From the NCBI RefSeq assembly GCF_013315695.1, contig NZ_CP054353.1: DNA of 64,000 nt. One strand, written 5' to 3'. Positions within the stretch are counted from its first letter, which is position 1. Each line of letters opens with the position of its first letter. The notes below the pieces were generated by a model. That model had not been told where the DNA came from and searched no databases. It worked only from the letters and a program-made list of their open reading frames with translations. Position numbers and translations under genes: made by a program. Positions 31,212 to 33,020 of the stretch are shown here, piece by piece. The stretch comes from Escherichia coli (GTDB lineage Bacteria; Pseudomonadota; Gammaproteobacteria; Enterobacterales; Enterobacteriaceae).

Positions 31212-33020
31212 ATGAGCAAAATATCAGATTTGAATTATTCTCAACACATTACATTAGCCGACAATTTTAAACAAAAAAATGAAGTCTTAGATACCTGGTA
31301 TGTGGGAATGAATGATTTTGCCCGAATTGCCGGGGGGCAGAATAGCAGAAGCAATATTCTTTCTCCTAGAGCATTTTTGGAGTTTTTGGCAAAGATATTT
31401 ACCTTGGGTTATGTGGATTTTAGCAAACGCTCCAACGAAGCGGGTAGAAATATGATGGCTCATATTGAGTCCTCATCTTATTCTAAAGATACTGATGGCA
31501 ATGAAAAAATGAAGTTTTACATGAATAATCCTGAAGGGGAGCGAGCGGATTTATCTAAGGTGAAGATAGAAATTACACTTGCCTCAGTTTCTACTAAAGG
31601 GATTCGTGAAGGACATACAGTCATTATATTTAAACAATCTGATGGTTCGACTAATCGTTATGAAGGGAAGTCTTTTGAAAGAAAAGATGATAGTTCATTA
31701 CACCTGATTACTAACAAGATTCTGGCGTGTTACCAACGCGAAGCTAACAAGGAAATAGCGCGTCTATTAAATAATCATCAGAAGTTAAATAATCTACAGA
31801 AGTTAAATAATCTACAGAAGTTAAATAATCTACAGAAGTTAAATAATCTACAGAAGTTAAATAATATACAGGAGTTAAATAATATACAGGAGTTAAATAA
31901 TTCGCAGGAGTTAAATAATTCGCAGGAGTTAAATGATTCGCAGGATTTAAATGATTCTCAGGAGTTAAATAACTCGCAGGACTTAAATAATTCGCAGGTG
32001 AGTTGTAAAGGTTCAGTTGATTCTACGATTGCGGATTTATTAGAAAAACCATTGAATAATGCCTTATTAGCAATAAGGAACGAACATCTGCTATTAATGC
32101 CTCATGTATGTAGTGAATCGATTTCATACTTACTGGGCGAAAATGGTATACTTGAAGAAATAGATAAGCTCTACGAATCAAATGATCACGGAATTGATAA
32201 TCACAAAAAAGGTAACAATGAAATTAATGACATCATGATTAACCTGTCTCATATTCTTATTGATTCCTTAGATGATGCAAAGGTTAACCTTACACCGGTC
32301 ATCGATTCGATGCTGGAGACTTTTTTAAAATTCCCATATATTTATGATGTAAGAATACTGGAGTGGTGCTTTAATAAAAGCATGCAATATTCTGATGATA
32401 CAAAAAAGATAAAGCATGCATGCTCCGTAATAAATCATATTAATCTTCGCAGCGATCAGTCTAAAATAGCTGAGGCATTATTTTTCAATCTCGATAAAGA
32501 ACCCTATAAAAATAGCCCTGAATTACAGGGGTTGATTTGGAATAAGTTGGTTGTATATGTCAATGATTTTAACTTAAGCAATCGAGAAAAAACATATTTA
32601 ATACAAAGGATATTTAATAATGTTGAGTCTGTATTTAATAAAGTGCCTGTCAGCATTTTAGTAAATGATATTTTTCTGAAGGATTTTTTTATGAAAAATC
32701 CTGAGATGATTAATTGGTATTTCCCTCAGTTACTTAATACCTATGAGGGTGAAAAGATTTATTTTGATAAGTTGGGGTATGATTTTAATAATAAAGAGTC
32801 TAATGATGAGATTATGAAAAATCAACCAAATGATGTTATTAATGAAAAAATTAATAATGAATTAAAACTTAGGTTTAGAATGATGCAAACTATCTTGAAA
32901 TCGAGAGTTAATGTATTACCATATATTAATGAACAGCGTTTAAATAAACTAAATCCACCGGAAAATTTACGTATAGCAATAGAAAAATTTGGGTGGAATA
33001 ATAAACCTATCACTGCATAA
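31212..33020 (+). CDS. yjgL: Uncharacterised AT-rich protein YjgL with internal hexapeptide repeat array (602 aa)
   Basis: Long low-GC ORF at the yjgL position; 12 tandem Q-[KED]-L-N-[ND]-[LIS] repeats. Confidence 0.85.
   Translation: MSKISDLNYSQHITLADNFKQKNEVLDTWYVGMNDFARIAGGQNSRSNILSPRAFLEFLAKIFTLGYVDFSKRSNEAGRNMMAHIESSSYSKDTDGNEKMKFYMNNPEGERADLSKVKIEITLASVSTKGIREGHTVIIFKQSDGSTNRYEGKSFERKDDSSLHLITNKILACYQREANKEIARLLNNHQKLNNLQKLNNLQKLNNLQKLNNLQKLNNIQELNNIQELNNSQELNNSQELNDSQDLNDSQELNNSQDLNNSQVSCKGSVDSTIADLLEKPLNNALLAIRNEHLLLMPHVCSESISYLLGENGILEEIDKLYESNDHGIDNHKKGNNEINDIMINLSHILIDSLDDAKVNLTPVIDSMLETFLKFPYIYDVRILEWCFNKSMQYSDDTKKIKHACSVINHINLRSDQSKIAEALFFNLDKEPYKNSPELQGLIWNKLVVYVNDFNLSNREKTYLIQRIFNNVESVFNKVPVSILVNDIFLKDFFMKNPEMINWYFPQLLNTYEGEKIYFDKLGYDFNNKESNDEIMKNQPNDVINEKINNELKLRFRMMQTILKSRVNVLPYINEQRLNKLNPPENLRIAIEKFGWNNKPITA
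31779..31994 (+). repeat. 12 tandem copies of an 18-bp unit (cagaagttaaataatcta and variants) inside yjgL
   Basis: Perfect and near-perfect 18-bp direct repeats read directly from the sequence. Confidence 0.95.

Follow-up and report, generated by a model that had tools for sequence, protein, structure and literature searches.

An in-frame 18-bp tandem repeat within yjgL (icaR) of Escherichia coli is the strain-typing locus CVN002/VNTR-34

What is the tandem repeat that lies inside yjgL of Escherichia coli, how does it vary among strains, and does its length matter to the protein? We addressed these questions in a stretch of 64,000 bp of an E. coli genome (assembly GCF_013315695.1, contig NZ_CP054353.1), called the window below. 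The initial annotation of this stretch had described a twelve-copy 18-bp repeat encoding the hexapeptide QKLNNL and variants of it. We found that this repeat is a locus already used in strain typing, where it is known as CVN002 and VNTR-34. Taken jointly, the observations are best explained by an in-frame 18-bp minisatellite in yjgL, corresponding to this locus, which changes within runs of identical units and encodes a spacer of nearly neutral length; we consider this explanation very probable.

The gene was named from its nearest complete relative. Over 3,488 bp the E. coli strain JP538 is identical to the window apart from the array, and its near-identical gene is labeled 'yjgL: protein YjgL' by the Prokaryotic Genome Annotation Pipeline (PGAP); the name yjgL was therefore adopted. 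The amino acid identity to YjgL of K-12 (DH1) is 85%. The same gene was described as icaR (gem3) in Shigella flexneri (Silue et al., 2022; PMC9241512).

The repeat described in the initial annotation was confirmed by the sequence itself, by its in-frame dissection and by Tandem Repeats Finder (TRF). It consists of 12 contiguous 18-bp units that fill exactly the interval listed in Table 1, in frame with the open reading frame (ORF) of 602 aa. The unit peptides are, in order, QKLNNL (four times), QKLNNI, QELNNI, QELNNS (twice), QELNDS, QDLNDS, QELNNS and QDLNNS, and the 72 residues of the array are drawn solely from N, L, Q, S, K, E, D and I. Units 1–4 are identical to each other, as are units 7 and 8, while the remaining units are 1–4 bases off a neighbor. 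TRF placed the repeat at 31767..31998 with a period of 18, 12.9 copies, 91% matches, zero indels and a score of 252. Since the 64-kb window has just one further tandem array with a score of at least 50, the repeat far exceeds what chance would produce. Neither YjgL nor the array has a paralogue elsewhere in the window.

Table 1. Coordinates of the features of the yjgL locus in the window.
Feature	Position	Strand	Remarks
yjgL (= icaR/gem3) coding sequence	31212..33020	+	602 aa, GC 0.317; N-terminal part residues 1-183, array 190-261, C-terminal part helical
12-unit array	31779..31994	+	unit map AAAABCDDEFGH; YjgL residues 190-261
Degenerate leader (thirteenth) unit CGTCTATTAAATAATCAT = RLLNNH	31761..31778	+	directly 5' of the array
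CVN002 forward primer site (AACCGTTATGAARGRAAGTCCT)	31653..31674	+	2 mismatches
CVN002 reverse primer site (TCGCCCAGTAAGTATGAAATC)	32120..32140	-	0 mismatches
Site homologous to PulseNet VNTR-34 forward primer	31713..31739	+	3 mismatches here, 2 in O157:H7
Site homologous to PulseNet VNTR-34 reverse primer	31978..32009	-	3 mismatches; overlaps last unit and right junction
tabA-yjgL intergenic region with promoter and 5' untranslated region	31090..31211	+	nearly invariant across alleles
Candidate MxiE box AGAGCGTTTTTTGATAT	31137..31153	+	best candidate only; 5 mismatches to the consensus GTATCGTTTTTTTANAG

In the generic E. coli scheme of multiple-locus analysis of variable-number tandem repeats (MLVA; Lindstedt et al., 2007), the locus CVN002 has an 18-bp unit, and its copy number is calculated from two published primers (Table 1) as (product-272)/18 (PMC8143711 Table 1). 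Both primer sites, of which zero are expected by chance, were found in the window in the correct orientation and bracket the array. The amplicon, 31653..32140, is 488 bp long, and (488-272)/18 gives 12.00 units. CVN002 polymerase chain reaction (PCR) performed in silico gave whole numbers of units in 11 of 12 sequences tested (2, 7, 8, 9, 10, 11, 12, 14 and 18); the unit-free allele of sequence type 131 (ST131) has a product of 266 bp, 6 bp below the offset of 272. The CVN002 alleles described in the literature include null, 1, 3, 8, 10, 18 and 19.

MLVA schemes for O157:H7 contain a single 18-bp locus, named Vhec2, TR6, O157-34 or VNTR-34. The cores of the PulseNet VNTR-34 primers (PMC8461963) lie on the yjgL locus of O157:H7 (L002) at 1561..1582 and 1797..1821, with 1 mismatch each. 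With the full primers, three O157:H7 genomes carrying 10, 9 and 8 units yield products of 261, 243 and 225 bp, respectively, all within the literature range of 170-314 bp, and these counts agree with the published O157 alleles (6, 8, 9 and 10, with EDL933 having 10; PMC3777172). It should be noted that the counting convention for VNTR-34 varies by laboratory, with 9 and 12 in some and 8-10 in others. Because the primers of CVN002 and VNTR-34 both sit on the yjgL array, with matching unit size and alleles, the array is the same object as CVN002 and as VNTR-34/Vhec2/TR6/O157-34, and was already known under at least five names.

The sequence of the primer sites also accounts for failures of typing. 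In the array-free allele of ST131 the CVN002 forward-primer site carries 5 mismatches, which explains the null alleles or 'no product' results reported for ST131 at this locus. It was also observed that, although most B2 strains were reported to lack icaR (PMC9241512), ST131 genomes (MB1341) hold a divergent, array-free and frameshifted copy at the same position.

That the array could result from misassembly, or be a low-complexity stretch that arose by coincidence, is next to impossible given these data: it reaches the TRF score reported above with four identical adjacent 18-mers, it has consistent unit maps in independent complete genomes, and many laboratories have determined its size by PCR. 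We also dropped its interpretation as an RNA or as part of an antisense gene, as an Rfam scan of 30500..33500 at E <= 1 matched no family and no ORF of at least 25 codons lies across the array on the opposite strand.

To describe variation among strains, we searched 5,426 complete E. coli genomes for the gene and found it in 4,804. It is highly divergent: identity to yjgL of the window was at least 99% in only two of these genomes and 80-90% in 3,831. For in-silico PCR, the CVN002 amplicon was used as a BLAST query and the span was taken per record; 4,787 records matched, and 60 evenly spaced rows of the ranking were sampled (Table 2). At least 80% of the amplicon was covered in 1,190 of the 4,787 records (25%), in agreement with about a quarter of the strains bearing an expanded array.

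Table 2. CVN002 products and copy numbers in 60 sampled records.
Product	Units	Rows	Remarks
266 bp	0	17/60	ST131 among them
308 bp	2	26/60	
398 bp	7	2/60	
416 bp	8	2/60	
434 bp	9	2/60	
452 bp	10	1/60	
470 bp	11	2/60	
488 bp	12	5/60	4 being K-12 derivatives
596 bp	18	1/60	
partial match		2/60	

At the protein level, 120 homologues contained 0-9 units, the commonest form being QELNNS-QDLNNS, and the array started at residue 190 or 196 in every full-length protein. The listed genes at least 98.4% identical to that of the window are 1755, 1791, 1809 and 1827 bp long, corresponding to 9, 11, 12 and 13 units, and the frameshifted gene of ETEC1749 (97.7% identical, 1844 bp) contains 14. Thus, the allele family of the window itself spans 9-14 units; its exact array (AAAABCDDEFGH) is absent from all 5,426 complete genomes. 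The initial annotation had predicted that copy number could make YjgL strain-variable in length and had proposed to compare it across E. coli genomes. The prediction was correct: counts are not identical, and 0, 2, 7-12 and 18 units occur among the 60 sampled genomes.

The way in which the array changes can be read from unit maps, in which each distinct 18-mer is given one letter (Table 3). The maps differ mainly in how many times an identical unit follows itself (A, D and F), while the terminal units are retained. The window and JP538 show 9 differences in 3,488 bp, every one of them at 31848..31940, within the array; similarly, two clonal O157:H7 strains with 10 and 8 units show zero differences over 3,272 bp of flank. 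Therefore, the array changes faster than the surrounding DNA, and runs of identical units gain or lose a single unit or a few units at once while the flanks remain unchanged.

Table 3. Unit maps of yjgL arrays (one letter per distinct 18-mer).
Strain	Map
Window	AAAABCDDEFGH
JP538	AAABCDDJFFGH
23AR0762	AABDDEFFFGH
ETEC1749	AAAAABDDEFFFGH
GPEC1258	KBDDFGL
O157:H7, 10 units	AAABBDDDGI
O157:H7, 9 units	AABBDDDGI
O157:H7, 8 units	AABBDDGI

The array of K-12 also has 12 units, each unlike its neighbors; it is old and decayed and is expected to be more stable. Arrays of equal length and different content are thus found in the window, JP538 and K-12, a length homoplasy that is hidden from fragment sizing.

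Instability driven by hairpins was rejected as a reading, as the array DNA folds more weakly than shuffled controls (z = +1.64). Because hairpin potential is lacking, the changes probably arise through misalignment of direct repeats during replication (slipped-strand mispairing) or through unequal recombination. The suggestion of the initial annotation that the array expands and contracts by slippage is therefore supported as a reading, by the run-length changes in the unit maps and the constancy of the flanks.

Where the array came from is indicated by the leader unit directly 5' of it. The counterpart of this unit is retained in alleles with no units (ST131, where LLLNNH-Q is kept at the site) and with two units (strain H3, RLLNIS followed by two units), and it is therefore the likely seed of the array. 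In CP117580.1, whose flanking core genes are 91.2% identical to those of the window, yjgL lies at the same position and is split into three ORFs; its homologous site reads ...QRDINNQTAIEINNLNKNGEDEV... and is free of repeats. Since the gene occupies the same position in this relative, it is older than E. coli. The array probably grew later, within the E. coli/Shigella lineage, from a single seed coding for LLNNxQ.

All array lengths seen (0-18 units) are whole numbers of 18-bp units, and the array never shifts the frame. Phase variation, i.e., an on-off switch, is ruled out, since the unit is 6 codons long and a multiple of three. As the reading frame is unbroken, the locus alters the length of the protein and does not switch it on or off.

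What the array contributes to the protein was approached through structure prediction. An AlphaFold2 model based on a 57-sequence alignment had a mean predicted local distance difference test score (pLDDT) of 52, and of 23-47 in the array, which is too weak to assign a fold. Residues 50-180 were modeled with moderate confidence as alpha/beta, and residues 340-470 as helical. The N/L/Q-rich hexapeptides may serve as a flexible spacer of low complexity that separates the helical C-terminal part of the protein from the N-terminal one, which would bear the type III secretion signal known from Shigella IcaR.

A different possibility is that the hexapeptides build a structured domain, a solenoid or beta-helix analogous to the repeat domain of SopA/NleL, so that YjgL would be a remote SopA-like effector. 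The repeat domain of SopA/NleL is a pentapeptide beta-helix located ahead of their central domain, and their catalytic cysteine is located in the C-terminal lobe. Scans of Pfam and NCBIfam gave matches below threshold only (SopA central domain, E = 0.019; FAM222A low complexity; SagD, E = 0.44). The SopA match, at residues 344-406, has 15.8 bits against a cut-off of 27 bits; many homologues carry precomputed PF13981 labels, and twelve hexapeptides could in principle give four 18-residue turns. However, a family-profile search against PDB sequences found no solved structure at E <= 10, and a Foldseek search of the model (mean pLDDT 52) against the PDB gave no significant match (best E = 0.098), with SopA/NleL not among the matches. 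Moreover, the array has the low pLDDT given above, alleles with 0-2 units that look functional could not form a solenoid, and the cysteines of YjgL lie only at positions 173, 265, 300, 386 and 404 of 602, so that the C-terminal catalytic cysteine of the SopA/NleL type is missing. We therefore consider a SopA-like repeat domain highly improbable. Foldseek matches of the N-terminal strands to oligonucleotide-binding (OB) folds resembling single-stranded DNA-binding proteins (SSB) were weak (E 0.3-1) and were set aside.

The gene as a whole is weakly constrained. The ratio of nonsynonymous to synonymous substitutions (dN/dS) between alleles ranged from 0.16 to 2.25 and was mostly 0.4-0.9. In several strains yjgL is annotated as frameshifted (O157 17B6-2, ST131 MB1341, GPEC1258 and ETEC1749); three of these four have their first stop after a homopolymer (A9, T8 or T5) that lies outside the array, and these frameshifts may be real or long-read homopolymer errors. 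In two strains IS1 is inserted in yjgL.

The alleles also have a mosaic appearance. In many genomes only bases 1..1586 of the gene are matched and the 3' end is a different one, and between the window and strain MS14385 the synonymous divergence (dS) is 0.064 at residues 262-440 vs. 0.444 at residues 441-602. This pattern suggests recombination between old allele classes.

Published work on icaR bears on the expression and role of the gene. In S. flexneri it is activated by MxiE/IpgC via a promoter box, and its product is secreted by the type III apparatus via an N-terminal signal (PMC9241512); secretion was shown experimentally for the Shigella protein only. The gene of K-12 (MG1655) responds to MxiE/IpgC, and icaR is silent in E. 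coli without these regulators and low in GC (PMC9241512). In addition, yjgL is upregulated without H-NS (PMC10383432). The icaR paper mentions 'internal and carboxy-terminal additions' in orthologues, conserved within phylogroups (PMC9241512). The 'internal addition' is the yjgL array; in the text of that paper the word 'tandem' is absent, the sole match to 'repeat' is 'repeated' in the methods, and no tie to typing loci is made.

Taken together, the occurrence of 0-, 2- and 18-unit alleles, the pLDDT of the array, the mostly intermediate dN/dS and the frameshifts and IS1 insertions indicate that the product of the array is most likely a low-complexity spacer that is dispensable and drifts in length. 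We infer that the length of this spacer is close to selectively neutral, since in ordinary E. coli the gene is silent, and it is under weak constraint and often broken.

Alternatively, spacer length might be tuned by selection to adjust the activity, reach or secretion of the protein, or to vary an exposed epitope, with functional differences between lineages. Such tuning seems quite unlikely. In ordinary E. coli, MxiE/IpgC are lacking and the gene is silent. Unit-free alleles are common (about 28% of the sample), frameshifts and insertions of insertion sequences are frequent, no phenotype is known, and copy number in O157 is almost fixed per clade, as for a slow neutral marker. Nevertheless, some observations agree with tuning: the secretion of the Shigella protein, a promoter and a 5' untranslated region that are strongly conserved ahead of a very variable coding sequence, patches of the gene with dN/dS of 1.0-2.25, and arrays of at least 7 units in about a quarter of gene-bearing genomes. 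A related proposal, rated lower again and regarded as quite unlikely, is that array length is a functional variable of IcaR/YjgL which sets the distance between the N- and C-terminal parts or the stability of the protein, the copy numbers (0, 2, 7-18) reflecting selection in hosts with an MxiE-like activator. If true, a routine typing marker would become a readout of effector variation.

Several points weigh against a slippage-driven, nearly neutral spacer. Slippage is deduced from patterns among natural alleles, without a directly observed mutation event, and recombination between alleles could explain some of the differences. During serial passage no change occurred at the locus, so its rate is low (<4.4e-5 per generation; PMC3777172). 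The copy-number frequencies describe a systematic sample of 60 of the 4,787 records, and the 12-unit class is inflated by laboratory derivatives of K-12. The AlphaFold2 model places a helix at residues 163-221, through the first half of the array; because this model is of low confidence and predicts such a helix, the flexible spacer is only a best guess. The neutrality of length, likewise, is deduced indirectly. Finally, both the promoter and the 5' untranslated region are almost invariant, and in many alleles the frame remains open over 540-640 codons; this argues against simple decay of the gene, and array length might matter.

The conservation of the upstream region is pronounced. Over 31090..31214 (125 bp including the ATG), alleles with 8-17% divergence in coding sequence show 0-2 differences, and the window differs from K-12 at 2 of 125 bases. 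Such a near-invariant promoter is unusual for a coding sequence that is hypervariable and under weak constraint. No match to the MxiE-box consensus with at most 3 mismatches occurs anywhere in the window, and the best candidate is listed in Table 1.

The composition of the locus agrees with the initial annotation, which had called yjgL and yjgN AT-rich relative to the flanking core genes. The GC content is 0.317 in yjgL and 0.371 in yjgN, compared with 0.50 in the window and 0.50-0.54 in the flanking genes. The array itself (GC 0.278) has the highest AT content within a gene that is AT-rich throughout, and its phased units (GC 0.28), each containing TTAAATAAT, might conceivably serve at the DNA level, as an intragenic array for binding or nucleation of H-NS in which copy number modulates the silencing of yjgL. 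The upregulation of the gene without H-NS would fit this idea. Nevertheless, yjgL minus the array is nearly as AT-rich (0.323), and the AT content is just as high in alleles with 0-2 units, so H-NS targeting does not require the array; furthermore, the strict six-codon unit and the conserved L and N positions indicate constraint at the coding level only. A DNA-level role is accordingly very unlikely.

The suggestion that yjgL has an old horizontal origin is supported as far as it could be tested: the gene is low in GC, the same inference was made for icaR (PMC9241512), and a syntenic gene is present in the relative with about 91% identity. In a search of 1.84 billion representative proteins, the sole full-length relative was one E. 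coli cluster, and no wider YjgL family could be built. The remaining matches were short fragments, most closely resembling parts of the query, or low-complexity matches at residues ~185-260; one of them (P0145) was rejected as an unrelated D/E/L/N repeat protein with low-complexity resemblance only. The YjgL family is thus essentially confined to Escherichia.

As for the setting, the upstream neighbors of the gene are pyrB, bdcA, bdcR and tabA, and the downstream ones are an ornithine carbamoyltransferase gene, rraB, yjgM and yjgN. In all loci compared, the orthologue has identical neighbors, in the order tabA - yjgL - argI/argF. In CP117580.1 (about 91% identical in pyrBI; locus L012, 3030..5600), the three yjgL ORFs have 214, 204 and 101 aa, and tabA directly follows the pyrBI leader, with bdcA/bdcR not lying between them. 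A second low-GC islet in the window is yjgN (35373..36596), which is AT-rich (GC at third codon positions, GC3, 0.36) between genes of normal composition; argI, rraB and yjgM stand between it and yjgL. The other tandem array of the window, at 40003..40298, is intergenic and comprises 3.1 copies of a 96-bp unit (93% matches, TRF score 504; the consensus starts with GCCTGATGCGACGCTG...). It looks like a cluster of repetitive extragenic palindromic (REP) and bacterial interspersed mosaic element (BIME) intergenic elements.

The array has been used in strain typing for about twenty years, as a routine marker since the early 2000s, and its observation here is correct but ordinary. What is added is small: the linking of CVN002 and VNTR-34 to each other and to icaR, the maps that locate the changes at the level of units, the length homoplasy and the basis of null alleles in the primer sites. 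For practitioners, CVN002 and VNTR-34/Vhec2/TR6/O157-34 are one array, inside icaR/yjgL, and the 'internal additions' of IcaR correspond to it. Since arrays of equal length may differ inside, fragment sizing under-reads diversity, and divergence of the primer sites accounts for null alleles. More curious than the repeat itself is the gene around it, which is restricted to Escherichia, silenced by H-NS and very divergent, with an almost invariant promoter.

Comparison with known systems places the array as follows: (i) it does not differ from CVN002 at the level of the locus, the published allele range equals that found in silico (0-18) and the window types as allele 12, with a unit order invisible to fragment sizing; (ii) VNTR-34 is the same array in the yjgL allele of O157:H7, with the same 18-bp unit and with counts of 8, 9 and 10 as in the literature, and differs in that its primers were built on the O157 allele, the reverse one covering the last unit and having 3 mismatches in the window; (iii) icaR of S. 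flexneri is orthologous, is likewise flanked by tabA and the ornithine carbamoyltransferase gene and shares the conserved promoter region and low GC, whereas the Shigella gene is cut short by an insertion sequence and that of the window has its full length of 602 aa and an expanded array; (iv) the HECT-like effectors SopA/NleL (PF13981) share a weak local resemblance at residues 344-406 and are, like IcaR, type III substrates of enteric bacteria, but the match is sub-threshold, the low-confidence model gave no structural match, the C-terminal cysteine is missing, and the repeats of YjgL are hexapeptides, not the pentapeptides of SopA/NleL; and (v) the contingency loci of Neisseria, Haemophilus and Campylobacter are likewise intragenic repeat tracts that change by slippage, but their units have 1-7 bases, are not multiples of three and mediate on/off switching at high rate, whereas the yjgL array has an 18-base unit, is always in frame and changes at less than 4.4e-5 per generation.

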